Assembly: GCF_035084215.1 (NCBI RefSeq)
Contig: NC_090359.1
Location: forward strand, 20,398,001-20,462,000
DNA: 64,000 nt
Direction: 5' to 3'
Origin: Heptranchias perlo
Taxonomy: Eukaryota
Both the position numbers and the translations under genes were made by a program. The notes under the pieces are model-generated. The model saw nothing but the letters and a program-made list of their open reading frames with translations, did not search any database and had not been told where the DNA came from. This document shows, one piece after another, positions 4,596 to 50,072 of this stretch (position 1 is the first letter of the stretch; each line of letters begins with the position of its first letter).

Positions 4596-7468
4596 ATGGG
4601 GGATTGTGTGGTGAGGGGTTTAGTCCCAGTGCTGGTGTTAGTCGGATCTGTTTGTTGCTCTGATATTTGGCAACAGTTTAGAGACCAGAGATTTCCATGG
4701 AGAAGAGTAAAACCCACCCCTGTACCCCAGAGAGTCCCTCCCCCTGGGCCTCCCTTTGGTTCCCATTTCAGCCTGTCTGAGGGGAGAAGTCTGTCCCCAC
4801 TGCAGACTGTGATGGTGCAGTGTGGAGAGCAGAACCTCCTGGTGAGGGTAAACATGGATTTATTTGGAACCAGGCACCTGATTAAAGCTGCTGACCTGAC
4901 CCTGGGGTCAGCAGGTTGTCGGCCAACTGGGGTCTACTCTCAGAACCACACCGTCCTCTTTGACTATGGGCTCCATGAATGTGGCAGCAGATTGCAGGTA
5001 ATGTGATTCCTCAACTCTTGCTCCAATTTCCCTGTGTAGATTACTCCTCACTCTGAGCTCATTAACATTGGGTGAAACTCCAGCCACTTAGTTTGAGGAG
5101 ATCCCTGAACTCTTCCTCCAATCCCTGTACAGGTTCTTGACATGTTAACTCACACCCAGTGTGAAACTACTTTGTTGACATGTCTCTTATCTTTTATTTA
5201 AATAAGATTCTAATTTGTCTCCTAGACTCTACAACTTTCTTCAACTGGTCTTTCCTATTCTCTAACTTTGATTTTCAATTCTATTGGCCTTGCACCTTCA
5301 CCTACATTTCCCCAAACAAGTCCTTCCTTTTGTTCCTCTGTAGATTTATCCTTTTCCTTCACATGGATATTCTGGTCTGTTGCCTCAACTTCAGGTCAAT
5401 GGATGTTCAGTGTTGTCGAACCTGTTGGGACTTCTCTTGAAAGACTAAACTCGTGGGATAATTGGGCGACAATGTATTAAAGGGGAACTCCACTTTTGGT
5501 TCTTAGACCTGCCGACCCCCTCCATGATTCCACGGACACAGATGAGGTTTAAAAGTGATGTGGTGTTTAGTGCTCCATCCCAGGGGTCAATTGAAGCCCC
5601 TTACGGTGGAAGCTCTATTCTATATCGGGTAGAATTCTCATCTAACCTGGCCGAGCCAAATCATTTCAGGGTTTCTGACTGCAGGCCTGAAGTCCCCTGT
5701 AATAGAAGGTGGACTGAGCAGAGTAACAGAGGCTGCTCCAGGCAACTTCGCTCAATGGTGGAGCTGCTTCAATCATGTGTCATTGGGGAGCAACTGAAAC
5801 CCCTCAAACTGCTGCTTAACAGGGTAGGAAAATGACCAGAAATAGCTTTTGTCCAATGAGACCAGCTCTTCATTCCTTCACCTGATGTCTTTCAGATGGC
5901 TGGAGATTTCCTGGTCTACACCACCCACCTGAACCACACCCCAAATGCTGGTGGATCAGTTATTGTGAGAACTAATGGAGCTGTCATTCCCATCCAGTGC
6001 CACTATTTGAGGTAAGAATCTTTACTCTGTTGCAAATCTGATCTGCTGCTGCTGTAGTGCTCTGAACTTGTCCTGAAATGAGTCCACTGTCCTTTCCAGG
6101 AAGGGCAATGTGAGCAGTAACCCCATCAAGCCCACCTGGATCCCATTCAGCTCGACCAAGTCTGGAGAAGGGCTTCTGTCATTCTCACTGCGTCTAATGA
6201 ATGGTATGTGATGGGTGGACGGGGAGGGCTTTCCTGTCGTTGCCCAATGGGAGTTACACCCACTGTCTCCAACTCTTGTTCTTCAGATGATTGGCTTACA
6301 GAGCGCACCTCGACTGTCTACTACCTGGGTGACCTCATTCACATTGAGGCCTCTGTTTCAATGACCAACCACATGCCCCTGAAGCTCTACATTGACAGCT
6401 GTGCAGCTACATTGAGCCCAGACAAGGATTCCACCCCAAGATACAACATCATTGAGTACCATGGGTAAGGAGCTCTCTGCTTTCTCCAGCTGCTCTCCTC
6501 CCAATGGCTTCACTTGATTCACTTCATGGCCCTTTTTTTGAATCTTCAGTTGCCTCCTGGACAGCAAAGCCGAGGACTCCTTTTCAACCTTTGTGTTGCC
6601 CAGAGATGAACATGAGCTGGACAAACTCCAGTTTGACCTGGATGCGTTCCGTTTCTTTGGAGATGACCGTTCCCTGGTAAGAGGAAGCCGATCATTGGGT
6701 TCCCCATGTTGGGAGGGGAGTCACTGAATAACAACTTGTATTGAATGTGTCCCTCAGATTTTCATCACCTGTCACCTGAAAGTTGCTGCAGTGGATCGGA
6801 GAGATTCCATGAACAAAGCTTGTACTTTCCACAAGATGCAGAATGTGTAAGTTCCCTTTCTCCCACGGGGATGTGTTGTGTGAAGTGATGCACAACCTGG
6901 TTGATAAACTGATTCTCTGGTTTAGCTGGACCCCATTGGAAGAATCGACCAATGACGTATGTGCCTGTTGTCATCTGGGCAACTGCAGTGTCACGAGGGA
7001 ATTCCGATTTGATTCCAGAGGAAGGAGGGATCTTGTATCTGGACCTGGTAGGACATTGATCCTCTCTATGTTGGAGGTCACCCTTTACCCTCTCTAACTG
7101 GAATGTTTGATATTGCAGAGAGTGATGCTGAATTGAAGTGGGAGGGTGAGGCCTCACTTGGACCCCTGGTCATTCTGGATCCTGATGTGACAGACCTGGC
7201 AACTGAGCCCCTGAATGAGGTTGAGCAAAGGATGCAGGAGAGGTCTCCAGGTGGTGAGTTGGCCGACTGCTAGTTCCCATTTTCCCCTCAGTATTTCCTT
7301 CTCTCACCATTGGTTTCTTGTTGCTTTTTAGGTGTGGAGTCTGAGGTGGTCCTGATCTTGGCCCTGAGTGTGAGCGCTGTCTCTCTGATCTCTGCTTCTT
7401 TGATCGCCTTGTTCCTGTACAGGAAACACAAGCCAACCCAGTTCAACTCGTTATCAAATGACCAATAA
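4596..7468 (+). CDS. zp3: Zona pellucida ZP3 (ZPC)-like protein, copy 1 (exon-1 type A, 3' type X), 469 aa
   Basis: Exons 4596-4997, 5896-6011, 6100-6203, 6287-6464, 6550-6676, 6758-6846, 6926-7047, 7119-7253, 7332-7468; all GT-AG and in phase. Signal peptide, ZP-N (4 Cys), IHP FSLRLM, ZP-C with CACC..GNC, furin site RGRR (7017-7028), [15 protein letters not shown] helix; AATAAA 7464. Confidence 0.93.
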
Positions 7469-7859
7469 AGCAGTGACTACTTGTATCTTCTAATGGCTGG
7501 TTGCTCATTTGTCACTGGATGTTGTGTGGGCTGGAGACAGACAATAAGTGCCAGTCATCAAATAATCAATAAAGTGATTGAATGAGGAACAAATCTCATT
7601 GCAGTGAATTTCATTTGGTTACTGACTGAAGACTAGTGTAATAACTAGCTATACAAATGTTCCATGTTCATTGTTGATGAAATGTCTATTGGTCTTGAGG
7701 GGTTCTCCTGGTCTTGAGTATCTGTGGTGTGAGTTTGACCAGCCTGACTGTAGTCTCCCTGATCGTCTGACCGTGGGGATATTGAGTCCCACTGAACTGT
7801 GCCAAGTTCTCAGTGATTGGGAGCATTTTGTAAATTGATTTGCTGGTCTTGTCATAGGA

Positions 7860-11431: not shown

Positions 11432-14260
11432 ATGGGGCAACTAGTGAAGGGTTTGGTTTCTCTGTTGGTTTTGGTCGGAGCTGTTTGTTGCTCTGATACT
11501 TGGCAGTGGTTTAGAAACAGGGACTTCCCATGGAACATTGAGAAGGCCACTCCTGCCCCTCCCTTTGGTTCCCATTTCAGCCTGTCTGAGGGGAGAAGTC
11601 TGTCCCCACTGCAGACTGTGATGGTGCAGTGTGGAGAGCAGAACCTCCTGGTGAGGGTAGACATGGATTTATTTGGAACCAGGCACCTGATTAAAGCTGC
11701 TGACCTGACCCTGGGGTCTGCAGGTTGTCGGCCAACTGGGGTCTACTCTCAGAACCACACTGTCCTCTTTGACTATGGGCTCCATGAATGTGGCAGCAGA
11801 TTGCAGGTAATGTGATTCCTCAACTCTTGCTCCAATTTCCCTGTGTAGATTACTCCTCACTCTGAACTCATTCACATTGGGTGAAACTCCAGCCACTTAG
11901 TTTGAGGAGATCCCTGAACTCTTCCTCCAATCCCTGTACAGGTTCTTGACATGTTCACTCACACCCAGTGTGGAACTACTTTGTTGACATGTTTCATCTT
12001 TTTCTTTTAACAAAGATTCTAATTTGTCTCCTAGACACTACAACTTTCTTTAACTGGTCTTTTCTATTCTCTAACTTTGATTTTCAATTCTATTGGCCTT
12101 GCACCTTCACCTACATTTCCCCAAACAAGTCCTTCCTTTTGTGCCTCTGTAGATTTATCCTTTTCGTTCTCATGGATATTCTGGTCTGTTGCCTCAACTT
12201 CAGGTCAATGGATGTTCAGGGTTGTCGAACCTGTTGGGACTTCTCTTGAAAGACTAAACTCGTGGGATAATTGGGCTACAATGTATTAAAGGGGAACTCC
12301 ACTTTTGGTTCTTAGACCTGCCGACCCCCTCCATGATTCCATGGACACAGATGAGGTTTAAAAGTGATGTTGTGTTTAGTGCTCCATCCCAGGGGTCAAC
12401 TGAAGCCCCTTACGGTGGAAGCTCTATTCTATATCGGGTAGAATTCTCATCTAACCTGGCCGAGCCAAATCATTTCAGGGTTTGTGACTGCAGGCCTGAA
12501 GTCCCCTGTAATAGAAGGTGGACTGAGCAGAGTAACAGAGGCTGCTCCAGGCAACTTTGCTCAATGGTGGAGCTGCTTCAATCATGTGTCACTGGGGAGC
12601 AACTGAAACCCCTCAAACTGCTGCTTAACAGGGTAGGAAAATGACCAGAAAAAGCTTTTGTCCAATGAGACCAGCTCTTCATTCCTTCACCTGATGTCTT
12701 TCAGATGGCTGGAGATTTCCTGGTCTACACCACCCACCTGAACCACACCCCAAATGCTGGTGGATCAGTCATTGTGAGAACTAATGGAGCTGTCATTCCC
12801 ATCCAGTGCCACTATTTGAGGTAAGAATCTTTACTCTGTTGCAAATCTGATCTACGGCTGCTGTAGTTCTCTGAACTTGTCCTAAAATGACTCCACTGTC
12901 CTTTCCAGGAAGGGCAATGTGAGCAGTGACCCCATCAAGCCCACCTGGATCCCATTCAGCTCGACCAAGTCTGGAGAAGGGCTTCTGTCATTCTCACTGC
13001 GTCTAATGAATGGTATGTGATGGGTGGACGGGGAGGGCTTTCCTCTCGTTGCCCAATGGGAGTTACACCCACTGTCTCCAACTCTTGTTCTTCAGATGAC
13101 TGGCTTACAGAGCGCACCTCGACTGTCTACTACCTGGGTGACCTCATTCACATTGAGGCCTCTGTTTCAATGACCAACCACATGCCCCTGAAGCTCTACA
13201 TTGACAGCTGTGCAGCTACATTGAGCCCAGACAAGGATTCCACCCCAAGATACAACATCATTGACTATCATGGGTAAGGAGCTCTCTGCTTTCTCCAGCT
13301 GCTCTCCTCTCAATGGCTTCACTTGATTCACTTCATGGCCCTTTTTTTTGAATCTTCAGTTGCCTCCTGGACAGCAAAGCCGAGGACTCCTTTTCAACCT
13401 TTGTATTGCCCAGAGATGAACGTGAGCTGGACAAACTCCAGTTTGACCTGGATGCGTTCCGTTTCTTTGGAGATGACCGTTCCCTGGTAAGAGGAAGCCG
13501 ATCATTGGGTTCCCCATGTTGGGAGGGGAGTCACTGAATAACAACTTGTATTGAATGTGTCCCTCAGATTTTCATCACCTGTCACCTGAAAGTTGCTGCA
13601 GTGGATCGGAGAGATTCCATGAACAAAGCTTGTACTTTCCACAAGATGCAGAATGTGTAAGTTCCCTTTCTCCCACGGGGATGTGTTGTGTGAAGTGATG
13701 CACAACCTGGTTGATGAACTGATTCTCTGGTTTAGCTGGACCCCATTGGAAGAATCGACCAATGATGTGTGCGCCTGTTGTCATCTGGGCAACTGCGGTG
13801 TCACGAGGGAATTCCGACTTGATTCCAGAGGAAGGAGGGATCTTGTATCTGGACCTGGTAGGACATTGATCCTCTCTATGTTGGAGGTCCCCCTTTACCC
13901 TCTCTAACTGGAATGTTTGATATTGCAGAGAGTGATGCTGAATTGAAGTGGGAGGGTGAGGCCTCACTTGGACCCCTGGTCATTCTGGATCCTGATGTGA
14001 CAGACCTGGCAACTGAGCCCCTTAATGTGGTTGAGCAAAGGATGCAGGAGAGGTCTCCAGGTGGTGAGTTGGCCGACTGCTAGTTCCCATTTTCCCCTCA
14101 GTATTTCCTTCTCTCACCATTGGTTTCTTGTTGCTTTTTAGGTGTGGAGTCTGAGGTGGTCCTGATTTTGGCCCTGAGTATGAGCGCTGTCTTTCTGATC
14201 TCTGCTTCTTTGATCGCCTTGTTCCTGCACAGGAAACACAAGCAAACCCAGTTCAACTAG
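11432..14260 (+). CDS. zp3: ZP3-like protein, copy 2 (type B / 3' type Y), 454 aa
   Basis: Exons 11432-11806, 12705-12820, 12909-13012, 13096-13273, 13360-13486, 13568-13656, 13736-13857, 13929-14063, 14142-14260 (TAG); intact frame, same domains as copy 1. Confidence 0.93.
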
Positions 14261-21701: not shown

Positions 21702-24555
21702 ATGGGGGATTGTGTGGTGAGGGGTTTTGTCCCAGTGCTGTTGTTAGTCGGATCTGTTTGTTGCTCTGATATTTGGCAACAGTTTAGAGGTCACAGATTT
21801 CCATGGAGAAGAGTAAAACCCACCCCTGTACCTCAGAGAGTCCCTCCCCCTGGGCCTCCCTTTGGTTCCCATTTCAGCCTGTCTGAGGGGAGAAGTCTGT
21901 CCCCACTGCAGACTGTGATGGTGCAGTGTGGAGAGCAGAACCTCCTGGTGAGGGTAGACATGGATTTATTTAGAACCAGGCACCTGATTAAAGCTGCTGA
22001 CCTGACCCTGGGGACAGCAGGTTGTCAGCCAACTGGGATCTACTCTCAGAACCACACCGTCCTCTTTGACTACGGGCTCCATGAATGTGGCAGCAGATTG
22101 CAGGTAATGTGATTCCTCAACTCTTGCTCCAATTTCCCTGTGTAGATTACTCCTCACTCTGAGCTCATTCACATTGGGTGAAACTCCAGCCACTTAGTTT
22201 GAGGAGATCCCTGAACTCTTCCTCCAATCCCTGTACAGGTTCTTGACATGTTAACTATCACCCAGTGTGAAACTACTTTGTTGATATGTCTCTTATCTTT
22301 TATTTAACAAAGATTCTAATTTGTCTCCAAGACACTACAACTTTCTTCAACTGGTCTTTCCTATTCTCTAACTTTGATTTTCAATTCTATTGGCCTTGCA
22401 CCTTCACCTACATTTCCCCAAACAAGTCCTTCCTTTTGTTCCTCTGTAGATTTATCCTTTTCCTTCTCATGGATATTCTGGTCTGTTGCCTCAACTTCAG
22501 GTCAATGGATGTTCAGTGTTGTCGAACCTGTTGGGACTTCTCTTGAAAGACTAAACTTGTGGGATAATTGGTCTACAATGTATTAAAGGGAACTCTACTT
22601 TTGGTTCTTAGACCTGCCGACCCCCTCCATGATTCCACGGACACAGATGAGGTTTAAAAGTGATGTTGTGTTTAGTGCTCCATCCCAGGGGTCAATTGAA
22701 GCCCCTTACGGTGGAAGCTCTATTCTATATAGGGTAGAATTCTCATCTAACCTGGCTGAGCCAAATCATTTCTAGGTTTGTGACTGCAGGCCTGAAGTCC
22801 CCTGTAATAGAAGGTGGACTGAGCAGAGTAACAGAGGCTGCTCCAGGCAACTTCGCTCAATGGTGGAGCTGCTTCAATCATGTGTCATTGGGGAGCAACT
22901 GAAACCCCTCAAACTGCTGCTTAACAGGGTAGGAAAATGACCAGAAATAGCTTTTGTCCAATGAGACCAGCTCTTCATTCCTTCACCTGATGTCTTTCAG
23001 ATGGCTGGAGATTTCCTGGTCTACACTACCCACCTGAACCACACCCCAAATGCTGGTGGATCAGTCATTGTGAGAACGAATGGAGCTGTCATTCCCATCC
23101 AGTGCCACTATTTGAGGTAAGAATCTTTACTCTATTGCAAATCTGATCTACGGCTGCTGTAGTTCTCTGAACTTGTCCTAAAATGACTCCACTGTCCTTT
23201 CCAGGAAGGGCAATGTGAGCAGTGACCCCATCGAGCCCACCTGGATCCCATTCAGCTCGACCAAGTCTGGAGAAGGGCTTCTGTCATTCTCTCTGCGTCT
23301 AATGAATGGTATGTGATGGGTGGACGGGGAGGGCTTTCCTGTCGTTGGCAATGGGAGTTACACCCACTGTCTCCAACTCTTGTTCTTCAGATGACTGGCT
23401 TACAGAGCGCACCTCGACTGTCTACTACCTGGGTGACCTCATTCACATTGAGGCCTCTGTTTCAATGACCAACCACATGCCCCTGAAGCTCTACATTGAC
23501 AGCTGTGCAGCTACATTGAGCCCAGACAAGGATTCCACCCCAAGATACAACATCATTGACTACCATGGGTAAGGAGCTCTCTGCTTTCTCCAGCTGCTCT
23601 CCTCTCAATGGCTTCACTTGATTCACTTCATGGCCCTTTTTTTTGACTCTTCAGTTGCCTCCTGGACAGCAAAGCCGAGGACTCCTTTTCAACCTTTGTG
23701 TTGCCCAGAGATGAACGTGAGCTGGACAAACTCCAGTTTGACCTGGATGCGTTCCGTTTCTTTGGAGATGACCGTTCCCTGGTAAGAGGAAGCCGATCAT
23801 TGGGTTCCCCATGTTGGGAGGGGAGTCACTGAATAACAACTTGTATTGAATGTGTCCCTCAGATTTTCATCACCTGTCACCTGAAAGTTGCTGCAGTGGA
23901 TCGGAGAGATTCCATGAACAAAGCTTGTACTTTCCACAAGATGCAGAATGTGTAAGTTCCCTTTCTCCCACGGGGATGTGTTGTGTGAAGTGATGCACAA
24001 CCTGGTTGATAAACTGATTCTCTGGTTTAGCTGGACCCCATTGGAAGAATCGACCAATGATGTGTGCGCCTGTTGTCATCTGGGCAACTGCGGTGTCACG
24101 AGGGAATTCCGACTTGATTCCAGAGGAAGGAGGGATCTTGTATCTGGACCTGGTAGGACATTGATCCTCTCTATGTTGGAGGTCCCCCTTTACCCTCTCT
24201 AACTGGAATGTTTGATATTGCAGAGAGTGATGCTGAATTGAAGTGGGAGGGTGAGGCCTCACTTGGACCCCTGGTCATTCTGGATCCTGATGTGACAGAC
24301 CTGGCAACTGAGCCCCTTAATGTGGTTGAGCAAAGGATGCAGGAGAGGTCTCCAGGTGGTGAGTTGGCCGACTGCTAGTTCCCATTTTCCCCTCAGTATT
24401 TCTTTCTCTCACCATTGGTTTCTTGTTGCTTTTTAGGTGTGGAGTCTGAGGTGGTCCTGATCTTGGCCCTGAGTATGAGCGCTGTCTTTCTGATCTCTGC
24501 TTCTTTGATCGCCTTGTTCCTGTACAGGAAACACAAGCAAACCCAGTTCAACTAG
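21702..24555 (+). CDS. zp3: ZP3-like protein, copy 3 (type A / 3' type Y), 463 aa
   Basis: Exons 21702-22103, 23001-23116, 23205-23308, 23391-23568, 23655-23781, 23863-23951, 24031-24152, 24224-24358, 24437-24555; intact. Confidence 0.93.
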
Positions 24556-30151: not shown

Positions 30152-33004
30152 ATGGGGGATTGTGTGGTGAGGGGTTTAGTCCCAGTGCTGGTGTTAGTCG
30201 GATCTGTTTGTTGCTCTGATATTTGGCAACAGTTTAGAGGCCAGAGATTTCCATGGAGAAGAGTAAAACCCACCCCTGTACCTCAGAGAGTCCCACCCCC
30301 TGGGCCTCCCTCTGGTTCCCATTTCAGCCTGTCTGAGGGGAGAAGTCTGTCCTCACTGCAGACTGTGATGGTGCAGTGTGGAGAGCAGAACCTCCTGGTG
30401 AGGGTAGACATGGATTTATTTAGAACCAGGCACCTGATTAAAGCTGCTGACCTGACCCTGGGGACAGCAGGTTGTCGGCCAACTGGGATCTACTCTCAGA
30501 ACCACACTGTCCTCTTTGACTATGGGCTCCATGAATGTGGCAGCAGATTGCAGGTAATGTGATTCCTCAACTCTTGCTCCAATTTCCCTGTGTAGATTAC
30601 TCCTCACTCTGAGCTCATTCACATTGGGTGAAACTCCAGCCACTTAGTTTGAGGAGATCCCTGAACTCTTCCTCCAATCCCTGTACAGGTTCTTGACATG
30701 TTAACTCACACCCAGTGTGAAACTACTTTGTTGACATGTCTCTTATCTTTTATTTTAAAAGATTCTAATTTGTCTCCTACACACTACAACTTTCTTTAAC
30801 TGGTCTTTCCCATTCTCTAACTTTGATTTTCAATTCTATTGGCCTTGCGCCTTCACCTACATTTCCCCAAACAAGTCCTTCCTTTTGTTCCTCTGTAGAT
30901 TTATCCTTTTCCTTCTCATGGATATTCTGGTCTGTTGCCTCAACTTCAGGTCAATGGATGTTCAGGGTTGTCGAACCTGTTGGGACTTCTCTTGAAAGAC
31001 TAAACGAGTGGGATAATTGGTCTACAATGTATTAAAGGGAACTCTACTTTTGGTTCTTAGACCTGCCGACACCCTCCATGATTCCACGGACACAGATGAG
31101 GTTTAAAAGTGATGTTGTGTTTAGTGCTCCATCCCAGGGGTCAATTGAAGCCCCTTACGGTGGAAGCTCTATTCTACATAGGGTAGAATTCTCATCTAAC
31201 CTGGCCGAGCCAAATCATTTCAGGGTTTCTGACTGCAGGCCTGAAGTCCCCTGTAATAGAAGGTGGACTGAGCAGAGTAACAGAGGCTGCTTCAGGCAAC
31301 TTCACTCAATGGAGGAGCTGCTTCAATCATGTGTCATTGGGGAGCAACTGAAACCCCTCAAACTGCTGCTTAACAGGGCAGGAAAATGACCAGAAATAGC
31401 TTTTGTCCAATGAGACCAGCTCTTCATTCCTTCACCTGATGTCTTTCAGATGGCTGGAGATTTCCTGGTCTACACCACCCACCTGAACCACACCCCAAAT
31501 GCTGGTGGATCAGTCATTGTGAGAACTAATGGAGCTGTCATTCCCATCCAGTGCCACTATTTGAGGTAAGAATCTTTACTCTGTTGCTATTCTGATCTAC
31601 GGCTGCTGTAATTCTCTGAACTTGTCCTGAAATGACTCCACTGTCCTTTCCAGGAAGGGCAATGTGAGCAGTAACCCCATCAAGCCCACCTGGATCCCAT
31701 TCAGCTCGACCAAGTCTGGAGAAGGGCTTCTGTCATTCTCACTGCGTCTAATGAACGGTATGTGATGGGTGGACAGGGAGGGCTTTCCTGTCGTTGCCCA
31801 ATGGGAGTTACACCCACTGTCTCCAACTCTTGTTCTTCAGATGACTGGCTTACAGAGCGCACCTCGACTGTCTACTACCTGGGTGACCTCATTCACATTG
31901 AGGCCTCTGTTTCAATGACCAACCACATGCCCCTGAAGCTCTGCATTGACAGCTGTGCAGCTACATTGAGCCCAGACAAGGATTCCACCCCAAGATACAA
32001 CATCATTGACTACCATGGGTAAGGAGCTCTCTGCTTTCTCCAGCTGCTCTCCTCTCAATGGCTTCACTTGATTCACTTCATGGCCCTTTTTTTGAATCTT
32101 CAGTTGCCTCCTGGACAGCAAAGCCGAGGACTCCTTTTCAACCTTTGTGTTGCCCGGAGATGAACGTGAGCTGGACAAACTCCAGTTTGACCTGGATGCG
32201 TTCCGTTTCTTTGGAGATGACCGTTCCCTGGTAAGAGGAAGCCGATCATTGGGTTCCCCATGTTGGGAGGGGAGTCACTGAATAACAACTTGTATTGAAT
32301 GTGTCCCTCAGATTTTCATCACCTGTCACCTGAAAGTTGCTGCAGTGGATCGGAGAGATTCCATGAACAAAGCTTGTACTTTCCACAAGATGCAGAATGT
32401 GTAAGTTCCCTTTCTCCCACGGGGATGTGTTGTGTGAAGTGATGCACAACCTGGTTGATAAACTGATTCTCTGGTTTAGCTGGATCCCATTGGAAGAATC
32501 GACCAATGATGTATGTGCCTGTTGTCGTCTGGGCAACTGCAGTGTCACGAGGGAATTCCGACTTGATTCCAGAGGAAGGAGGGATCTTGTATCTGGACCT
32601 GGTAGGACATTGATCCTCTCTATGTTGGAGGTCACCCTTTACCCTCTCTAACTGGAATGTTTGATATTGCAGAGAGTGATGCTGAATTGAAGTGGGAGGG
32701 TGAGGCCTCACTTGGACCCCTGGTCATTCTGGATCCTGATGTGACAGACCTGGCAACTGAGCCCCTGAATGAGGTTGAGCAAAGGATGCAGGAGAGGTCT
32801 CCAGGTGGTGAGTTGGCTGACTGCTAGTTTCCATTTTCCCCTCAGTATTTCCTTCACTCACCATTGGTTTCTTGTTGCTTTTTAGGTGTGGAGTCTGAGG
32901 TGGTCCTGATCTTGGCCCTGACTGTGAGCGCTGTCTCTCTGATCTCTGCTTCTTTGATCGCCTTGTTCCTGCACAGGAAACACAAGCAAACCCAGTTCAA
33001 CTAG
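30152..33004 (+). CDS. zp3: ZP3-like protein, copy 4 (type A / 3' type X), 463 aa
   Basis: Exons 30152-30553, 31450-31565, 31654-31757, 31841-32018, 32104-32230, 32312-32400, 32480-32601, 32673-32807, 32886-33004; intact; Y>C at 31942. Confidence 0.92.
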
Positions 33005-34949: not shown

Positions 34950-36370
34950 GGCACTGCCCGGTCACTACAGGAGCGGGGCACTGCCCGGTCACTACAGGAG
35001 CCGGGCACTGCCCGGTCACGACTGGAGCCGGGCACTGCCCGGTCACTACAGGAGCCGGGCACTGCCCGGTCACTACTGGAGCCGGGCACTGCCCGGTCAC
35101 TACAGGAGCCGGGCACTGCCCGGTCACCACAGGAGCCGGGCACTGCCCGGTCACCACAGGAGCCGGGCACTGCCCGGTCACCACAGGAGCTGGGCACTGC
35201 CCGGTCACGACTGGAGCCGGGCACTGCCCGGTCACCACAGGAGCCGGGCACTGCCCGGTCACTACTGGAGCCGGGCACTGCCCGGTCACTACAGGAGCCG
35301 GGCACTGCCCGGTCACAACAGGAGCCGGGCACTGCCCGGTCACAACAGGAGCCGGGAACTGCCCGGTCACCACAGGAGCTGGGCACTGCCCGGTCACGAC
35401 TGGAGCCGGGCACTGCCCGGTCACTACAGGAACTGGGCACTGCCCGGTCACCACAGGAACCGGGCACTGCCCGGTCACCACAGGAGCCGGGCACAGCCCG
35501 GTCACCACAGGAGCCGGGCACTGCCCGGTCACCACAGGAGCCGGGCACTGACCGGTCACCACTGGAGCCGGGCACTGCCCGGTCACTACAGGAGCCGGGC
35601 ACTGCCCGGTCACAACAGGAGCCGGGCACTGCCCGGTCACAACAGGAGCCGGGCACTGCCCGGTCACCACAGGAGCTGGGCACTGCCCGATCACGACTGG
35701 AGCCGGGCACTGCCCGGTCACCACAGGAGCCGGGCACTGCCCGGTCACTACTGGAGCCGGGCATTGCCCGGTCACCACAGGAACCGGGCACTGCCCGGTC
35801 ACCACAGGAGCCGGGCACTGCCCGGTCACCACAGGAGCCGGGCACTGCCCGGTCACCACTGGAGCCGGGCACTGCCCGGTCACTACAGGAGCCGGGCACT
35901 GCCCGGTCACAACAGGAGCCGGGCACTGCCCGGTCACAACAGGAGCCGGGCACTGCCCGGTCACCACAGGAGCTGGGCACTGCCCGGTCACGACTGGAGC
36001 CGGGCACTGCCCGGTCACCACAGGAGCCGGGCACTGCCCGGTCACTACTGGAGCCGGGCACTGCCCGGTCACTACAGGAACCGGGCACTGCCCGGTCACC
36101 ACTGGAACCGGGCACTGCCCGGTCACCACAGGAGCCGGGCACTGCCCGGTCACCACAGGAGCCGGGCACTGCCCGGTCACCACAGGAGCCGGGCACTGCC
36201 CGGTCACCACAGGAGCCGGGCACTGCCCGGTCAATACAGGAGCCGGGCACTGCCCGATCAATACAGGAGCCGGGCACTGCCCGGTCACCGCAGGAGCCGG
36301 GCACTGCCCGGTCACCACAGGAGCCGGGCACTGCCCGGTCAATACAGGAGCCTGGCACTGCCCGGTCACC
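34950..36370. repeat. 27-bp VNTR, ~52 units
   Basis: Same unit as 9350-9905; no indels (ORFs stay in frame across the array). Confidence 0.95.
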
Positions 36371-37901: not shown

Positions 37902-40689
37902 ATGGGGCAACTAGTGAAGGGTTTGGTTTCTCTGTTGGTTTTGGTCGGAGCTGTTTGTTGCTCTGATACTTGGCAGCGGTTTAGAAACAGGGACTTCCCA
38001 TGGAACATTGAGAAGGCCACTCCTGCCCCTCCCTTTGGTTCCCATTTCAGCCTGTCTGAGGGGAGAAGTCTGTCCCCACTGCAGACTGTGATGGTGCAGT
38101 GTGGAGAGCAGAACCTGCTGGTGAGGGTAGACATGGATTTATTTGGAACCAGGCACCTGATTAAAGCTGCTGACCTGACCCTGGGGACAGCAGGTTGTCG
38201 GCCAACTGGGATCTACTCTCAGAACCACACCGTCCTCTTTGACTATGGGCTCCATGAATGTGGCAGCAGATTGCAGGTAATGTGATTCCTCAACTCTTGC
38301 TCCAATTTCACTGTGTAGATTACTCCTCACTCTGAACTCATTCACATTGGGTGAAACTCCAGCCACTTAGTTTGAGGAGATCCCTGAACTCTTCCTCCAA
38401 TCCCTGTACAGGTTCTTGACATGTTAACTCACACCCTGTGTGAAACTACTTTGTTGACATGTTTCATCTTTTTCTTTTAACAAAGATTCTAATTTGTCTC
38501 CGAGACACTACAACTTTCTTTAACTGGTCTTTTCTATTCTCTAACTTTGATTTTTGATTCTATTGGCCTTGCACCTTCACCTACATTTCCCAAAACAAGT
38601 CCTTCCTTTTGTGCCTCTGTAGATTTATCCTTTTCGTTCTCATGGATATTCTGGTCTGTTGCCTCAACTTCAGGTCAATGGATGTTCAGTGTTGTCGAAC
38701 CTGTTGGGACGTCTCTTGAAAGACTAAACTCGTGGGATAATTGGGCTACAATGTATTAAAGGGGAACTCCACGGACACAGATGAGGTTTAAAAGTGATGT
38801 TGTGTTTAGTGCTCCATCCCAGGGGTCAATTGAAGCCTCTTACAGTGGAAGCTCTATTCTATATAGGGTAGAATTCTCATCTGACCTGGCTGAGCCAAAT
38901 CATTTCTGGGTTTCTGACTGCAGGCCTGAAGTCCCCTGTAATAGAAGGTGGACTGAGCAGAGTAACAGAGGCTGCTCCAGGCAACTTCACTCAATGGTGG
39001 AGCTGCTTCAATCATGTGTCATTGGGGAGCAACTGAAACCCCTCAAACTGCTGCTTAACAGGGCAGGAAAATGACCAGAAATAGCTTTTGTCCAATGAGA
39101 CCAGCTCTTCATTCCTTCACCTGATGTCTTTCAGATGGCTGGAGATTTCCTGGTCTACACCACCCACCTGAACCACACCCCAAATGCTGGTGGATCAGTT
39201 ATTGTGAGAACTAATGGAGCTGTCATTCCCATCCAGTGCCACTATTTGAGGTAAGAATCTTTACTCTGTTGCAAATCTGATCTACGGCTGCTGTAATTTT
39301 CTGAACTTGTCCTGAAATGACTCCACTGTCCTTTCCAGGAAGGGCAATGTGAGCAGTAACCCCATCAAGCCCACCTGGATCCCATTCAGCTCGACCAAGT
39401 CTGGAGAAGGGCTTCTGTCATTCTCACTGCGTCTAATGAATGGTATGTGATGGGTGGACGGGGAGGACTTTCCTGTCGTTGCCCAATGGGAGTTACACCC
39501 ACTGTCTCCAACTCTTGTTCTTCAGATGACTGGCTTACAGAGCGCACCTCGACTGTCTACTACCTGGGTGACCTCATTCACATTGAGGCCTCTGTTTCAA
39601 TGACCAACCACATGCCCCTGAAGCTCTACATTGACAGCTGTGCAGCTACATTGAGCCCAGACAAGGATTCCACCCCAAGATACAACATCATTGACTACCA
39701 TGGGTAAGGAGCTCTCTGCTTTCTCCAGCTGCTCTCTTCTCAATGGCTTCACTTGATTCACTTCATGGCCCTTTTTTTGAATCTTCAGTTGCCTCCTGGA
39801 CAGCAAAGCCGAGGACTCCTTTTCAACCTTTGTGTTGCCCAGAGATGAACGTGAGCTGGACAAACTCCAGTTTGACCTGGATGCGTTCCGTTTCTTTGGA
39901 GATGACCGTTCCCTGGTAAGAGGAAGCCGATCATTGGGTTCCCCATGTTGGGAGGGGAGTCACTGAATAACAACTTGTATTGAATGTGTCCCTCAGATTT
40001 TCATCACCTGTCACCTGAAAGTTGCTGCAGTGGATCGGAGAGATTCCATGAACAAAGCTTGTACTTTCCACAAGATGCAGAATGTGTAAGTTCCCTTTCT
40101 CCCATGGGGATGTGTTGTGTGAAGTGATGCACAACCTGGTTGATAAACTGATTCTCTGGTTTAGCTGGATCCCATTGGAAGAATCGACCAATGACTTATG
40201 TGCCTGTTGTCGTCTGGGCAACTGCAGTGTCACGAGGGAATTCCGACTTGATTCCAGAGGAAGGAGGGATCTTGTATCTGGACCTGGTAGGACATTGATC
40301 CTCTCTATGTTGGAGGTCCCCCTTTACCCTCTCTAACTGGAATGTTTGATATTGCAGAGAGTGATGCTGAATTGAAGTGGGAGGGTGAGGCCTCACTTGG
40401 ACCCCTGGTCATTCTGGATCCTGAAGTGACAGACCTGGCAACTGAGCCCCTTAATGAGGTTGAGCAAAGGATGCAGGAGAGGTCTCCAGGTGGTGAGTTG
40501 GCTGACTGCTAGTTTCCATTTTCCCCTCAGTATTTCCTTCACTCACCATTGGTTTCTTGTTGCTTTTTAGGTGTGGAGTCTGAGGTGGTCCTGATCTTGG
40601 CCCTGACTGTGACCGCTGTCTCTCTGATCTCTGCTTCTTTGATCGCCTTGTTCCTGTACAGGAAACACAAGCAAACCCTGTTGAACTAG
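37902..40689 (+). CDS. zp3: ZP3-like protein, copy 5 (type B / 3' type X), 454 aa
   Basis: Exons 37902-38276, 39135-39250, 39339-39442, 39526-39703, 39789-39915, 39997-40085, 40165-40286, 40358-40492, 40571-40689; intact. Confidence 0.93.
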
Positions 40690-42627
40690 TTATCAAATGA
40701 CCAATAAAGCAGTGACTACTTGTATCTTCTAATGGCTGGTTGCTCATTTGTCACTGGATGTTGTGTGGGCTGGAGACAGACAATAAGTGCCAGTTATCAA
40801 ATAATCAATAAAGTGATTGATTGAGGAATAAATCTCATTGTAGTGAATTTCATTTGGTTACCGACTGAAGACTCGTGTAATAACTAGCTATACAAATGTT
40901 CCATGTTCATTGTTAATGAAATGTTTATTGGTCTTGAGGGGTTCTCCTGGTCTTGAGTATCTGTGGTGAGTTTGACCAGCCTGACTGTAGTCTCCCTGAT
41001 CCTCTGACCGTGGGGATATTGAGTCCCACTGAACTGTGCCAAGTTCTCAATGATTGGGAGCATTTTGTAAATTGATGTTAATTTGCTGGTCTTGTCACGG
41101 ATCATGTTCTACCATTCAACTCGATCATGGCTGATCTCTTCACCCCCATCGACCCACCTTGGTTCCATAAACCCTCAATACCCTTACCTAACACACACCT
41201 ATTGATCAGTTTTGAAATTCTCAATTAATCTCCTTCACCAGCTTTTGGGAGAGTTCCAGATTTCCACTCCCCTTTGTGTGAAGAAGTGCTTCCTGACATC
41301 ACCCCTGAATGGCCTGGCTCTAATTTTAAGGTTATGCCCCCTTGTTCCAGACTCTCCTGACCAGGAGGAATAGTTTCTCTCTCTCTCTTGACCTGAGCAA
41401 ATCCTTTAATCATCTTAAACCTCTCAATTCAATCACCCCGTTACCTTCTGCACACAGGGAATACAAGCCCAGTGTGTGCAACCTGTCCTCATAACTTAAC
41501 CCTTTCAGCTCCAGTATCCTTCCTGAGCTTCGCTGCCCAGAACTGAACGCAGTATTTAAATGGGGTCTAACCAGAGCTTTATATAACTGTAGCATAACTT
41601 CCAGCCCTCTTGAGATAAAGACCAACATTCCTTTAGCCTGCTAAATTATTTTTGTACCTGTCCACTAGCTTTTAGTGATTCCTGTACTTGGACCCCTCAA
41701 TCTCTCTGCTCCTCCACAGTTCCGAGCTTCTCACCATTTTGAAAATACTCTGATCTTTCTTGGGTGTAAAGTGGGTGACCTCACCCTCCCCCCCATGGTG
41801 AACTCCACCTGCCACAGTTTTGCCCACTCACTTAATCTATCAATGTCCCTTTGAAACGTTCTGCTCCCGTCTACACTATTTATTGTGTCACCTCACTTAG
41901 TGTCATCAGCAAACTTGGATATACAGCTCTCTATTCCTTCATCCAAGTCCGTTATAAATAGAGTGAAAAGCTGAGGCCCCAGTACAGATCCCTGGGGGAC
42001 ACCACTGGTCACATCCTGCCAATTTGAGTACAGACCCATTATCCCCACCCTGTCTCCTAACCAATTCTCTACCCTCATCAATAGGTTGCCTCCAATTCCG
42101 GATATTTCTCATTTTTGTGACTGGTCTCTTATGTGGAACGCTATCGAATGCCTTCTGGAATTCCACATAAATAACATCCATGGACGTTCCCTCATCGACC
42201 CCGTTAGTGACCTCAACAAATTCAACTGGGTTTGTTAAACATGACTTATCCTTTACAATCCATGCTGGCTCCATCTTTATCCAAGAGCTCAGTCACTGCC
42301 CCTGACAACAGATTCCAGTCGATTAATGTCTCTCATTATCTCTCCTCCCAATAATGGAGTGACATTGGCAATTTTCCAATCCAAGGGGACAATTCCTGAG
42401 GAATCTTATCTCCAATAAAAAGTGCCCCTGGGAAGGAGGCATCCCCTTGAGTTGCTAAACATCTCGATGTGACATCAGTGTAGAATCTACATCTTTTATA
42501 TAAAAAGAGCAAACGACCCACTAAACAGACGGGGCCCAATTGTGATTCAGTTACAGTACTGGGTCTCCAACAGCAGGTGGCACAGCACCCACACCAATTA
42601 TAATGAGCACGTCCTTGTCCCCCTAGT

Positions 42628-42995
42628 GGGACTGCCCGGTCACCACAGGAGCTGGGCACTGCCCGGTCACTACAGGAGCCGGGCACTGCCCGGTCACTAC
42701 AGGAGCTGGGCACTGCCCGGTCACGACTGGAGCTGGGCACTGCCCGGTCACTACTGGAGCTGGGCACTGCCCGGTCACCACAGGAGCCGGGCACTGCCCG
42801 GTCACCACTGGAGCCGGGTACTGCCCGGTCACTACAGGAGCTGGGCACTGCCCAGTCACCACAGGAGCTGGGCACTGCCCGGTCACCACAAGAGCTGGGC
42901 ACTGCCCGGTCAATACAGGAGCTGGGCACTGCCCGGTCATTGCACAAGCTGGGCACTGTCTGGTCACGACAGGAGCCGGGCACTGCCCGGTCACT
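42628..42995. repeat. 27-bp VNTR, ~13 units
   Basis: Same unit as 9350-9905. Confidence 0.95.
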
Positions 42996-44243
42996 GTCCC
43001 CTGTGTGAAAACTCTTGTGAATATTAACTTATTTCTGTGAATACAGAGAGACGCCGGGACAACAAAGGAAAAGTCTGACAGTCTCACCCGGGTTTACTGA
43101 GAGTTTGCACAAAGTCTCGAGCACAACATACAAACGATGGCTGTGCATTTATAACCTGCCTTCTCCAGCCTCCCAATACATACGCAGAATTATAGAAGCT
43201 GTTATCTGGGCCGAATGGCCTACTCCTGCTCCTATTTTCTATGTAAACCAATCCACATTGTATTTTCTCACAGCAAGACCCCCTGCAGACACTATTTCGA
43301 AGGAGAGCGGGGGAGTTCTCCCCGGTGTCCAGATTATCTGGTGATTATCTCATTGCTGTTTGTGGGATCTTGCTGTGCGCAAATTGGCTGCTGCGTTTCC
43401 TACATTACAACAGTGACCACACTTAACAAAATACTAAGGGTGGGGTGTGGGGGGATATACAGACTGGGACAAGCCTTCTGACACTTGCTGTCTCCGATCG
43501 CACAGGAGGAGCAGTCACTTGATCGAACTATAGGACGTCCCAAAGCGTTTTACAGCCAATGAAGTACATTTTGAAGTGCAGTCACTGTTGTAATGTGGGA
43601 AACACGGCAGCCAATTTGCGCACAGCAAGATCCCACAAACAGAATGAGATAATGACCAGATCATCTGTTTTAGTGATGATGGTTGAGGGATAAATATTGG
43701 CCCAGGACACGGGGAGAACTCCTCTCTCTTCTTCGAAATAGAGGGCGTGGGATCTTTTACGTTCACCTGAGAGGGGCCTCCGTTTAACATCTCAATGGAA
43801 AGGCGGCACCTCCAACAGTGCAGCACTCCCTCAGTACGGGCACTGGGGGTGTCGGCCTGGATAATGTGCTCAAGTCTCTGGATTGGGGCCACCCAGTGAG
43901 GAAGGGGGGGGGCGGGCAGGTCGAAGGATCTCCTCGTGGGCCTGCTCCTGGGCCTGGCCAAGGTGACCATCCACAGGTCCAGGTTGGACGCGGCCTGTGG
44001 GGGGACGGTCTCTCCGACTGTCTGCCTCTCTTCCGCGGCATTCTCCGCGCCCGGGTGACCCCTGGAGAGGGAGCACGCGGTGTTTGCCGGTACGCTCAAG
44101 GCTTTCCGCGACCGGTGGGCACCGCAGGGACCGGAGCGCCTATCGTTCAGTATTATGATTGAATTTGATAAGTTTCCTTTGTTTTTTTATGATTTGGGTG
44201 ATTATCGTTTGAGCCCCTCTCAGGAGGGGGCACTTTAGTTGAG

Positions 44244-44476
44244 ATTGGTTGTTAGGGGGGTTTTTATGATGGTTACACAAGAAGAGGAGACCCAGATTGT
44301 CTGCAACCTGGACTAATTCCATTGGATCATCTCCCAATCACGAACCCAGTCTCTCCGTGTGAAGATCTTTTGCGAGACCAACCAATGAGTGAGATTGTTG
44401 GAAGATGTCATGAGATTAGTCTATTGGTCATTTATCCAATTGGTGTCAGGTGACTGACTACAGGTTGTGTATAAAA
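44244..44476 (+). promoter_or_regulatory. Type-B zp3 promoter
   Basis: CCAAT cluster, CCAATTGG, CAGGTG, TATAAAA 44470. Confidence 0.8.
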
Positions 44477-44526
44477 GGGATCAGTGACTCCCTTCAGTTC
44501 CCAGTTGAGCTGTAATAGTTTGTATT

Positions 44527-47204
44527 ATGGGGCAACTAGTGAAGGGTTTGGTTTCTCTGTTGGTTTTGGTCGGAGCTGTTTGTTGCTCTGATACTTGGCA
44601 GCGGTTTAGAAACAGGGACTTCCCATGGAGCATTGAGAAGGCCACTCCTGCCCCTCCCTTTGGTTCCCATTTCAGCCTGTCTGAGGGGAGAAGTCTGTCC
44701 CCACTGCAGACTGTGATGGTGCAGTGTGGAGAGCAGAACCTCCTGGTGAGGGTAGACATGGATTTATTTGGAACCAGGCACCTGATTAAAGCTGCTGACC
44801 TGACCCTGGGGACAGCAGGTTGTCGGCCAACTGGGGTCGACTCTCAGAACCACACTGTCCTCTTTGACTACGGGCTCCATGAGTGTAACAGCTCAGTAAA
44901 GGTAATGTGATTCTTCATTAAAACACGTCTCTCTGGACAGACTGAATAACCAGGTTTAATGAGCTCTCCTGAGCAGGGTAACAGTGGAGGAAGTGAATGA
45001 GAGTTTGTAGCTTTGTCGGTCAGAGTGCAGGCAATTTTTTATTACACTGGGGTGGTTTTGAATAAACTGTCTCTAATTTCTACTGTCCATTGGTTAGGAC
45101 ACAGTCGGGGTGTCATGTGGTTTTGGGCCCTGTTACAGGAAGGATCATGGGAAGAGCCTGCTGAATAGTCACACGAGCTTCTTTCTGCAGGAAGGTTTGG
45201 GGAAACATTGAGACCTTTCTCATTGGCCGGTTAAGGGGAGCTTCTAGAGTAAAGAGATGACTTGCCTCGGGTGACATGGCGATGAGGGAACATAGACTGA
45301 GGATTATCCTTTGAAGAAATTCTCAGGGTTGTGAAGGTGTGGAATGCCTTAACACAAATGACTATTGAGGTACTTGAGAGAGAACCAATGGAGCAGTCAA
45401 TTGTCTCTTGAGTGTCTTCATCCTGGGGAAGGAGGTGATTGAGAGGCTCCTTCACCCAATGGCCTACAATATCACTTCAAATGGAAATGGCAGGTTTCAT
45501 TTTTGAAAGGCAGAAATAAGATGTAGGAAAAGGGTTGGTTGGTTGGCTCTCGTTGGTTGGCTCTAGTTAGTTAGCTAGTTAACACAAGTATGAAGGGCTC
45601 AGTGGGTTTCTTTCTTCAGCAGCAATTGATTTAAAACAAATTGCACTCTTGTCCAAGAATGACTTCCCCCTGTTCTGTACCTGACCCTAACCAGATTTCC
45701 TCCCCCTCTCTCTCCCAGATGACTGAGGACCTGTTGATTTACGCCACCCACCTGTACTACAGGCCGAGCCCTATTGGAGGAGTCATTGTGAGAACCAGTG
45801 GAGCTGTTATCCCTATTGAGTGCCATTATCCCAGGTAAGGGGGGGTGATTGAGAGGCTCCCAATTTGGGGGGGTGGGTGGGGGTTGTGAATTGGAAGTAA
45901 AGCTGGCCTTGCTCCTTCCCACAGGAAGAGGACGGTGAGCAGCAATGCTATCAAGCCCACCTGGATCCCATTCTCCTCCACCAAGTCGGCCGAGGGACGT
46001 CTGTCGTTCTCCCTGCGTCTGATGACTGGTAAGTGATGGCCAATTGTCTACCTTGCTGGTTTTTAACCTGTCTCTTGGGATCGAGTGAGGAATCCAGAGC
46101 TCTTCCCCTCGTGTGTGTGTTCCAGATGACTGGAGTGCAGAGCGTGCCTCCCAAATCTACCACCTGGGTGACCTCATTCGCATCGAGGCCTCTGTTGTGA
46201 CGGTGAACCACATGTCGCTGAGGCTCTACATTGACAGCTGTGTAGCTACACTGAGCCCAGATCCGGAGTCCACCCCCAGATACCATATCATTGACTTCAA
46301 TGGGTAAGGTCTATAGCTGGGCTCTGCAATGCCTGTCCCATAGCTGGTGGGATCCATTCTTATCCATACAGCTCTTTCCCACCCTCTTTCCAGTTGCCTG
46401 TTGGACAGCCAAGGTGAAGACTCCCTTTCGTCTTTCGTCTCACCGCGAGATCACCGGGACAAGATCAGGTTCAACCTGGATGCCTTCCGCTTCTTTGAGG
46501 ATGCTCGGGATTTGGTAAGAGGAGGCTGGATGTTGAAGGGTGAGATGGTGAGTGTTGACACTCAGTGACTCCTGAATGTGTCTCCTGTAGATCTTCATCA
46601 GTTGCCACCTGAAAGTAGTGGCAGCAGAGCGAAGGCCAGATTCGATGAACAAGGCTTGTTCCTTCCAGAAGCCAGCCAACCGGTGAGCTAAATCCGCCCA
46701 AGAACGGTGGACTTTTTTTTTGGAGTATGGATGCAACTCTTGACCGATGGCTTGCTTCCTTGTTTAGATGGTTCCTGGTGAATGAATTGGACCTGACCCA
46801 GTTGGAAGGATCCAATGAGGTTTGTGCCTGTTGTGATGGGGGCAACTGCACCGCTCCGATATTGGGACCAGGCGGAAGACTGCACTCCAGGGGCTGGAGG
46901 GAGGTTCCATCTGAGCTCGGTATGTTGTGGTGGTGGGTGTTGAGGGGGGGGTGAAGTTGGATGTTTTGTAACTGGATGGAACCAATTGCAGAGTCTGAGC
47001 CTGTGTGGGAGGGTGAGGCCTCCCTTGGACCCCTGATCGTTCTGGATGCTGATGTGAAGGGCCTGGTTCATTCAGCGGGCCGTGAAGCGGCCGAGACTCT
47101 TAGCGGTTCCACGTTCTCCTCCAGGTGAGTGTTGATTCGACGACAACCCAATTCCAGTCTTGTGCCTCTTGACTCAAAATTGGCTTCTCATTCTCCGCAG
47201 GTGA
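44527..47204 (+). CDS. zp3: Divergent ZP3-like protein, copy 6, predicted to lack the transmembrane domain, 424 aa (pseudogene not excluded)
   Basis: Exons 44527-44901, 45719-45834, 45925-46028, 46126-46303, 46394-46514, 46591-46682, 46768-46919, 46992-47124, 47201-47204 (TGA). All GT-AG; 12 ZP Cys, IHP and EHP intact; ends TFSSR*; AATAAA 47343. Confidence 0.8.
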
Positions 47205-47466
47205 TGTGGGTTCTGAGGTGCCTCAGGTCATGGCTGTGACACCAGCAGCTCTGGCCCTGATCTCTGGCCTTCCTACTGTCCAGGAAACATGACTGAATCT
47301 TTCCCTGAATTGAGCTTTTCATTATTTGTCAAAAAATGGTTCAATAAAGCTGAAATGTGACTGATTTTGAGTCAACGCTGAAGACTAGTACACTGGTATT
47401 GGTAATTTGCACTTCAGTTGTCTAAATAACACTCGACCAGTTACGGAGGTCTACATTTAACTATTT

Positions 47467-48155: not shown

Positions 48156-48989
48156 TTGACACCGTCCACTCTAAGCTGTGCACGGCCAGGCAGAGCACTT
48201 AAACATTCTGCCCACGCACCAAACCAGTGCTCTCTCTGGTCAGTTTTGAGTTAACAGATATCGACGGTGGAGATGCTGCCTGATTCACTGTCCGGGGGTG
48301 ACTGCTTTCCCCTTGTGATCGTTATCGAGTGACCCCGACTAAGGTGTGGCCGGCCAGCGGGTGGTAGAAGATTGGCTCTGTCTGGCCTCACTGGTCAGCT
48401 GCCTTGCTGACGTTCGCTGCCTGGGTGGGCCCGTAGAGAGTGACTGGTGTGTGAAGCAGTGGCACCATTGGCCAGTGAGAGTCAACACCTGAGGGAGAGG
48501 GAAACTTTAAAGGGAAAAAGGAGAGTCGGCTGAGGCACGTTTTGGAAGTCTCTGGATAACCCGGGCTGCTCTGTAACGCTGTAAACAGCGAGCGGTCAGT
48601 TGTCCTGAGTCAGTCTGGCTGGCTGTGGGAGGTATGTAAAGATATTTGGTTACATAATCCGTGTTTGAATAGCTGAGTGTGATCCTATGTGACACAAGCC
48701 AGCTGTTCCCCAGTATCAGCACTGCTCCATTAACCATCATTCAGGACTTGCTGGTTTCTTAAAGGGACAGTGCCCTTAGCAGTGTCCAACTGATGTTTGG
48801 TGTGAATCTTCAGTGAATGACACGGGGCAATGGAATTGCTCCTCTCCTGCCTGTGAGATACCTTTTAATTCACAGAACTCCAAGTGGGGAAGCTCGAAAC
48901 TAGACATTTAGAACAATCTTGGCCACTTCAAATACACAGTCCAATCTGAATGGCTGTCTGGTAATAAAGGTGTGATAGTGTGGCTCCAA

Positions 48990-50072
48990 GGAGCCTGAGT
49001 AAAATTGAAGTCAATGGGAATCGGGGAAAACTCCAGTGGCTGGAGTCGTACCTAGCACAAAGGAAGATGATAGTGGTTGTTGGAGGCCAATCATCTCAGC
49101 CCCAGGACGTTGCTGCAGGAGTTCTTTAGGGTAGTGTCCTAGGCCCAATCATCTTCAGCTGCTTCATCAATGACCTTCCCTCCATCATAGGGGACAATTG
49201 CTAATGATTGCAGTGTTCGGTTCCATTTGCAACCCCTCAGATGATGCAGTCTGTGCCTACGTGCAGCAAGACCTTGACAACATCCAGGTTTGGGCTGACA
49301 AGTGGCAAGTAACATTCATGCCAGGCAATGGCCATCTCCAACAAGAAAGTCTAACCACCTCCCCTTGACATTCAACGGCATTACTGTCGCCAAATTCCCC
49401 ACCATCAACATCCTGGGGGTCACTATTGACCAGAAACTTAACTGGACCAGCCACATAAATACTGTGGCTGCAAGAGCAGGTCAGAGGCTGGGTATTCTGC
49501 GGCAAGTGACTCACCTCCTGACTCCCCAAAGCCTTTCCACCATCTACAAGGCACAAGTCAGGAGTGTGATGGAATACTCTCCACTTGCCTCGATGAGTGC
49601 AGCTCCAACAACACTCAAAAGCTCGACAGCATCCAGGACAAAGCAGCCTGCTTGATTGGCACCCCATCCACCACCTTAAACATTCACTCCCTTCACCACT
49701 GGCGCACTGTGGCTGCAGTGTGTACCATCCACAGGATGCACTGCAGCAACTCGCCAAGGCTTCTTTGACAGCACCTCCTAAACCCGTAACCTCTACCACC
49801 TAGAAGGACAAGGGCAGCAGGCACATTGGAACAACACCACCTCCAAGTCACACACCATCCCGACTTGGAAATATATCGGCTGTTCCTTCATCATCGCTGG
49901 GCCAAAATCCTGGAACTCCCTTCCTAACAGCACTGTGGGAGAACCTTCACCACACGGACTGCAGCGGTTCAAGAAGGCGGCTCACCACCACCTTCTCAAG
50001 GGCAATTAGGGATGGGCAATAAATGCCGGCCTCGCCAGCGATGCCCACATCCCATGAATGAATTTTTTTTTT
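48990..50072 (+). mobile_element. Independent, more decayed copy of the CR1-group LINE family seen at 740-2166
   Basis: Colinear with 1062-2150 with separate indels and stops; tail caccaccaccttctcaagggcaattagggatgggcaataaatgc. Confidence 0.9.

Follow-up and report, generated by a model that had tools for sequence, protein, structure and literature searches.

TM-less ZP3 proteins are already known from teleosts, and tandem amplification of ZP3 genes from catfish. The natural chicken ZP3 precursor is membrane-anchored. The chicken precursor structure (PDB 3nk3, 3nk4) is the basis of the EHP-lock model and the nearest solved structure of P0023, a sawshark protein discussed below (E = 2e-102). 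According to the accessible text of PMC8391237, ZP precursors are locked by the EHP and the IHP, both of which have to be intact for a TM-less precursor to be secreted; once R-X-X-R or R-X-K/R-R has been cut, the EHP is released and the precursor can polymerise (PMC8391237; bioRxiv 2023.06.21.544075, in the parts available). The accessible parts of two further papers describe TM-less fish precursors as cleaved upon reaching the egg (PMC9692296; PMC8362008), and teleost TM loss is usually read there as a result of liver synthesis (PMC8362008). As far as their available sections go, other sources place liver expression of ZP proteins in the ancestor of Clupeocephala and report that the amplified ZP3 arrays of catfish are expressed in ovary only (PMC13704971), that cyprinid chorion proteins are made by the oocyte (PMC9330664), and that chicken ZP1 is carried in blood (PMC4475693). 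Full-text searches of the open literature, which leaves out most subscription journals, gave no description of a TM-less shark ZP3, and neither sharks nor TM loss were treated in the available parts of PMC10140178, PMC6262864 and PMC13361971.

Here we describe a ZP3 gene of Heptranchias perlo, copy 6 of a tandem array, whose product is laid out like choriogenin L of teleosts and further fish ZP3 proteins without a TM (medaka; stickleback, accessible text of PMC8362008): it has a signal peptide, ZP-N, ZP-C, a cleavage site and a C-terminal hydrophobic patch but no TM, and would be a soluble precursor that cleavage at the egg activates. Copy 6 lacks the TM and keeps the EHP, as expected of a choriogenin. 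Unlike choriogenin L, it is of separate origin, inside a shark ZP3 subfamily, and it has a visible fossil TM exon, a promoter common to anchored genes and a weakened furin site. Descent from a teleost liver-type ZP3 duplicate is not what we find, since copy 6 is sister to anchored sawshark proteins in a tree that holds no teleost rows. Copy 6 is a ZP3 built like choriogenin L, and its identity as a choriogenin is not established. With moderate confidence, we favour the explanation that copy 6 and its twin are spliced TM-less ZP3 genes that likely encode a working soluble precursor, probably made in the ovary, locked by its EHP, cleaved late outside the cell and used as a minor egg-coat subunit.

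A ZP3 gene without a TM segment in an array of anchored genes

The window analysed here is the whole 64 kb stretch (G000:C38:20398001-20462000), which contains six ZP3 genes, all on the + strand. Copies 1 (4596..7470, 469 aa, main subfamily), 2 (11432..14260, 454 aa), 3 (21702..24555, 463 aa), 4 (30152..33004, 463 aa) and 5 (37902..40689, 454 aa) encode anchored precursors of 454-469 aa with RGRR, EHP and TM. The named protein nearest to them is P0030, labelled Heptranchias perlo, which is identical to copy 1 at 206 of 217 residues. This main elasmobranch array resembles copy 6 in its nine-exon plan, the phases of exons 1-7 and the cysteines, lies in one gene cluster with it, and differs in being anchored and carrying RGRR; copies 1 and 6 are identical at only 149 of 218 residues.

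Copy 6 itself is a nine-exon gene at 44527-47204 (+) with GT-AG at every intron. Exon 1 (44527..44901; PF23344) encodes the signal peptide and the first half of ZP-N. It is followed by exons 2 (45719..45834), 3 (45925..46028), 4 (46126..46303; ZP-C, PF00100), 5 (46394..46514), 6 (46591..46682), 7 (46768..46919; CxCC cluster and furin-type site) and 8 (46992..47124), and the joints of exons 2 to 8 are all present in run X1, which is described below. Exon 3 carries the motif FSLRLM (46007-46024, +), which we take to be the IHP. The IHP motif of a sawshark relative aligns with chicken ZP3 (3nk3). The EHP (GPLIVLD, 47027..47047, +) is recognised by the consensus ..s.GPl.. in the accessible text of PMC9692296. 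The product is 424 aa long, with a signal peptide followed by ZP-N and ZP-C and with neither a trefoil nor an extra ZP-N; all 14 of its cysteines, CxCC cluster included, align with those of copy 1, and 13 are common with turtle P0011. Copy 6 is a member of the ZP3 (ZPC) subfamily and groups among ZP3 proteins in a tree whose rows are ZP3 only. An N-glycan sequon common to most ZP3 proteins at the start of exon 3 (window 45925-45940) is absent from the copy-6 subfamily (N to T, residue 167), the sawshark members included.

The 3' end of the gene is altered. In copies 1-5, exon 8 measures 135 nt and ends in phase 1; in copy 6 it is 133 nt long and ends in phase 2, so that translation stops at a TGA at 47202..47204 (+) when intron 8 is spliced and at 47126-47128 when it is retained; in both cases the C-terminus is TFSSR, just as an earlier note on this DNA had proposed. 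Exon 9 (47201..47296, +), which begins at 47201, is now 3' UTR and a fossil TM exon; the polyadenylation signal AATAAA lies at 47343..47348 (+). The maximum 19-residue hydropathy C-terminal of CxCC is 0.96, against 2.45-2.52 in copies 1-5. Copy 6 thus has no TM segment and is not a canonical membrane-anchored precursor, and it is co-arrayed with membrane-anchored copies, as the note had it. None of the eight AG sites that were tried as acceptors downstream of the exon 8 donor restores a TM. A conceptual form that skips exon 8 would be 409 aa long, without the EHP and with a hydropathy of only 1.49, and no exon-8-skipping joint is among those listed for copy 6 in run X1.

Protein alignment with the tails of sawshark relatives puts a net loss of 2 nt at approximately 47098..47104 (+); the old frame of copy 6, to which these tails align, appears to return at 47103, where it matches the sawshark linker. 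The fossil TM exon is legible in two frames, the later one reading AFLLSRKHD and then a stop; relative to two sawshark proteins it shows Leu to Pro twice, Leu to Gln and Gly to Leu, and relative to copy 1 it lacks 11 nt between 47266 and 47267. As had been claimed, the old TM exon is therefore recognisable, with prolines and a second frameshift. The claim that exons 1-8, all cysteines, IHP, EHP, splice sites and AATAAA are intact is likewise borne out. The further claim that damage lies solely past the EHP stands in part: no stop or frameshift occurs in the 1.2 kb upstream of the EHP and two frameshifts and four radical changes lie downstream of it, but the furin-type site, which precedes the EHP, has changed to RGWR.

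The surroundings of copy 6 offer several observations of their own. The ZP3 expansion is very large, with at least 87 exon-1 loci (88 scored matches) on G000:C38:9.1-20.9 Mb, C725, C1048 and C1246; DNA searches for ZP3 loci in this genome gave 146-166 candidates. Hybrid genes with a copy-6-type exon 1 on copy-1-type anchored bodies occur in the window at 11432-11806 and 37902-38276 and, elsewhere, at L010, L026 and L035, with a candidate further hybrid at G000:C38:20843018. The two in the window are copy 2, which joins a copy-6-type promoter and exon 1 to copy-1-type exons 2-9, and copy 5, which also has the copy-6-type promoter and is where anchored-type spliced contigs place. Two main-subfamily loci with fresh lesions past the EHP and an intact-looking TM exon, L013 (exon 9 acceptor AG to CG) and L014 (stop in exon 8), are independent young candidates for TM-less genes. 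A 27-bp minisatellite of 14 to 53 units lies upstream of each copy-6-type promoter (window 9350-9905, 34950-36370, 42627-42995), and 67-bp minisatellites occur at 395-741, 2167-2336, 17499-17845, 27785-28352 and 57683-58426. Beside the latter are reverse-transcriptase-like fragments (677-2133, 18356-19138, 48977-50063), presumably of LINE type, which were duplicated with the array. A fibrinogen gene cluster (PF08702) was found at G000:C1:138.77-138.88 Mb (L029-L033), where one chain seems to be present twice, at 138812373 and 138876780.

Ancestry of copy 6 and its twin

In a tree built on exons 2-7 of 32 ZP3 proteins, copy 6 falls with sawshark proteins (97/92), with P0004 as its sister (96/85), while copies 1-3 and other shark and ray proteins form a separate clade (100/99). 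On this tree, copy 6 belongs to a second, ancient ZP3 subfamily that split off before the divergence of sharks and rays. Protein database searches did not find this subfamily outside the sawshark Pristiophorus japonicus. The sawshark proteins P0004, P0005, P0023, P0024 and P0037 are identical to copy 6 at 182-190 of 225-226 residues over exons 2-7. The sawshark relatives share its exon 7 insert and its EHP, and differ from it by their TM and their full furin motif (each in 14 of 18 members). The remaining sawshark members are two that have the EHP and no TM (P0131 and P0138, which are gene models only), one fragment and one aberrant protein; the furin motif is RGRR or RDRR, and the four models without it lack that stretch.

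Given this distribution, the anchor and the full furin site would be ancestral and lost on the line to Heptranchias perlo, and the loss of the anchor is, by this comparison, lineage-specific. The subfamily is expanded in sawshark and down to two TM-less genes in the Heptranchias perlo genome. The idea that a TM-less ZP3 arose independently in a cartilaginous fish is supported by the tree, in which copy 6 is sister to an anchored sawshark protein. The note had also suggested looking for the same truncation in related species; the protein database searches showed the subfamily only in sawshark, where 14 of 18 members have a TM. Short or TM-less main-subfamily proteins in the database are gene models and were left out as evidence. 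Six models (P0004, P0040, P0046, P0053, P0067, P0077) skip exon 8, which is phase 1-1 in anchored genes, and so are anchored without an EHP, either by model error or as a real isoform. P0033, labelled Salmonella enterica, is a shark main-subfamily ZP3 with a TM and likely a contamination.

The second TM-less gene is a twin of copy 6 (L009), inverted and 380 kb away at G000:C38:20828300-20825626. A search with the 3' end of copy 6 gave one other full match, which is the twin, and exon 7 as a protein query gave exactly two genome matches (98 candidates scored). The twin shows the reading frame, the stop and the 11-nt deletion of copy 6, and differs from it at 17 of 1617 intron sites (about 1%). 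Directly past the fossil exon (window 47300) the twin departs from copy 6; its 3' end is a different one and carries a separate AATAAA.

In run X1, contigs span all eight introns of copy 6 with GT..AG joints and are free of indels in exon 8. X1 is called RNA by guess only, no run being recorded as RNA, and X1-X3 are a single sample of a single study and possibly the source of the assembly. The lack of expression that had been raised as a possibility is not what we see, spliced copy-6-type contigs being present in X1 (RNA by guess). These contigs agree with the window at position 46199 but with the twin at 46870, so either of the two loci may be the expressed one. No copy-6-specific cover was seen in runs X2 and X3, which were not counted as evidence.

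Probable selection after the loss of the anchor

Transcription alone does not show function: with the stop in its last exon, even a dead gene would be spared decay and remain transcribed. The two TM-less genes may be young relics, the last members of a shrinking subfamily whose anchor and furin site drifted away in a birth-and-death array, and which continue to be transcribed through a strong promoter and escape from nonsense-mediated decay. We consider this unlikely, mainly on the basis of the twins. Both postdate the loss, and their exons 2-8 differ at five silent and no replacement sites, whereas about 7 replacement changes would be expected from the intron rate (17 in 1617); neutrality is rejected at P = 0.0008-0.002 in a test that comprises these five sites only. 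The two differences between their fossil exons would each alter a residue in the old frame. Exon 1, which has three replacement and one silent difference, was set aside only after its exchange with copies 2 and 5 had been seen; with exon 1 included, the count is six silent to three replacement (P = 0.014). Since the split of the twins postdates both frameshifts, their silent-only divergence suggests that selection outlasted the anchor. A neutral ZP module, another outcome that the earlier note had allowed for, is thus not what exons 2-8 of the twins indicate (P about 0.001). The contrast between two frameshifts and four radical changes past the EHP and no frameshift or stop in the 1.2 kb before it also speaks against a relic.

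Other measures of constraint point both ways. The ZP module shows no degradation: over it, the branch length of copy 6 is 0.11 versus 0.095 for its anchored sister P0004, and copy 6 has changed 3 of 95 conserved columns, the median among 95 homologues being 2. Branch-specific replacements in exons 2-7 number 22 in copy 6 versus 13 in P0004, and also 23 versus 16. The dN/dS of copy 6 versus copy 1 is 0.35, a low value that does not date selection, as most of the branch may predate the loss of the anchor. The fossil exon, which the earlier note had suggested comparing with the module, shows no significant excess of replacement changes over exons 2-7 (4 of 31 versus 22 of 245, P = 0.51); faster decay is not apparent from these counts, and under drift the loss may be recent. 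Among 36 paralog loci, taken as the best matches of genome searches and not as a random sample, 21 are intact, 2 carry fresh lesions past the EHP and another 12 have breaks upstream of it, with one locus uncertain, which is compatible with a decaying array. As truncations past the EHP thus arise by chance in the array (2 of 36 paralogs, as fresh lesions), where the lesion lies is in itself weak evidence. The weakened furin site and the listing of mammalian TM-less truncations among infertility alleles (in the accessible text of PMC8391237) also agree with a relic.

Taken together, the reading frame of copy 6 is likely not evolving neutrally, a claim carried by the twin test and its few sites. 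Of the proposal that damage past the EHP implies selection on a secreted form, the selection is upheld by the twins (five silent, no replacement), while the position of the damage argues little.

Site of synthesis, cleavage and meaning

According to the explanation that we favour, copy 6 would be made in the ovary alongside the anchored copies and would leave the cell as a soluble precursor locked by its own EHP. Secretion in this form is predicted because the signal peptide, IHP, EHP and all cysteines are kept. Extracellular cleavage at RGWR would be slow, after which the protein would join the egg coat, late, as a minor subunit.

The promoter bears on the site of synthesis. The upstream region and exon 1 (42628..44917, +) recur in anchored copies 2 and 5, with 96% identity over 2.3 kb and 98-99% over the last 300 bp; the same 98-99% identity over 300 bp holds for the promoters of the intact anchored genes L010 and L035, while L026 has the copy-6-type exon 1 with a less similar upstream stretch, and exon 1 has been exchanged between copy 6 and copies 2 and 5. 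A TATA box at 44470..44475 (+) is common to copy 1. The E-box CAGGTG at 44447..44452 (+), 80 nt upstream of the ATG and likewise present close to the TATA box in copies 1, 2 and 5, is presumably an oocyte (FIGLA-type) element. In run X1, contigs of the anchored type whose splicing reaches the TM exon occur beside those of copy 6; anchored-type contigs number 944 in X1 and are few in X2 (26) and X3 (15). Because the promoter is common to anchored genes and X1 also has spliced anchored ZP3, the ovary, beside the anchored neighbours, is probably a likelier site of synthesis than the liver.

The same evidence weighs against a shark counterpart of euteleost choriogenins, that is, a soluble ZP3 from liver or another somatic tissue, driven by oestrogen and carried in blood to the follicle. 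The architecture does match the liver-made, TM-less ZP3 of stickleback (accessible text of PMC8362008), a precursor that has to survive secretion might well have a weaker furin site, and at 43956 there is an ERE-like site that departs from the consensus at one position. That site is, however, inside a repeat and common to anchored copies 2 and 5, and 38 of 1000 shuffles contain one; the promoter and exon 1 are those of intact anchored genes, and the run with copy 6 contigs also has spliced anchored ZP3. On this analysis, a liver origin is less likely, and we regard the whole choriogenin-like scenario as improbable.

The furin-type site in exon 7 (46889..46900, +) reads RGWR in place of the RGRR of copies 1-5. 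By the consensus in the accessible text of PMC8391237, RGWR satisfies the minimal R-X-X-R and not the fuller R-X-K/R-R; cleavage there is predicted to be slow, as RGWR fits the minimal consensus only. Judging from the relatives, the P2 arginine of the furin site and the anchor were both lost on the copy 6 branch, with the ZP module still under selection. This pairing would fit a soluble regulator that is secreted, stays uncleaved at RGWR, keeps its EHP and, without polymerising, caps or spaces the filaments of the anchored copies or acts as a decoy for them, polymerisation requiring release of the EHP (PMC8391237; bioRxiv 2023.06.21.544075, in their accessible parts). RGWR nevertheless still fits the minimal consensus of PMC8391237 (accessible text), the change from RGRR or RDRR may be a CpG transition, the full motif is missing from 14 of 92 ZP3 sequences, and RGWR recurs in one Heterodontus model, P0048, so that we hold such a regulator to be slightly less probable still. 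Finally, an assembly or sequencing error, which the note had also contemplated as the source of the frameshifts, has next to no chance of being right and is ruled out by the twin, which carries both frameshifts at about 1% intron divergence, and by the X1 contigs, which lack an indel in exon 8; no support for it was found.

A bolder form of the idea, to which we give little credence, is that in this shark a whole ancient ZP3 subfamily, having lost its anchor and the key furin arginine, turned into a secreted EHP-locked precursor that tunes or caps the filaments of some ninety ZP3 neighbours without a shift to the liver.

What copy 6 offers is one shark lineage in which the anchor is gone, the promoter is still that of anchored genes and the dead TM exon is still readable. 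If the ovary is the site of synthesis, as our preferred explanation has it, loss of the anchor can precede, and occur without, a shift to the liver, which would make the order of these steps testable. With copy 6, nature also puts to the test whether the egg coat admits a ZP3 that has no TM and only a weak furin site; should it instead act as a soluble regulator, it would be a natural one of ZP polymerisation, again without a liver shift.
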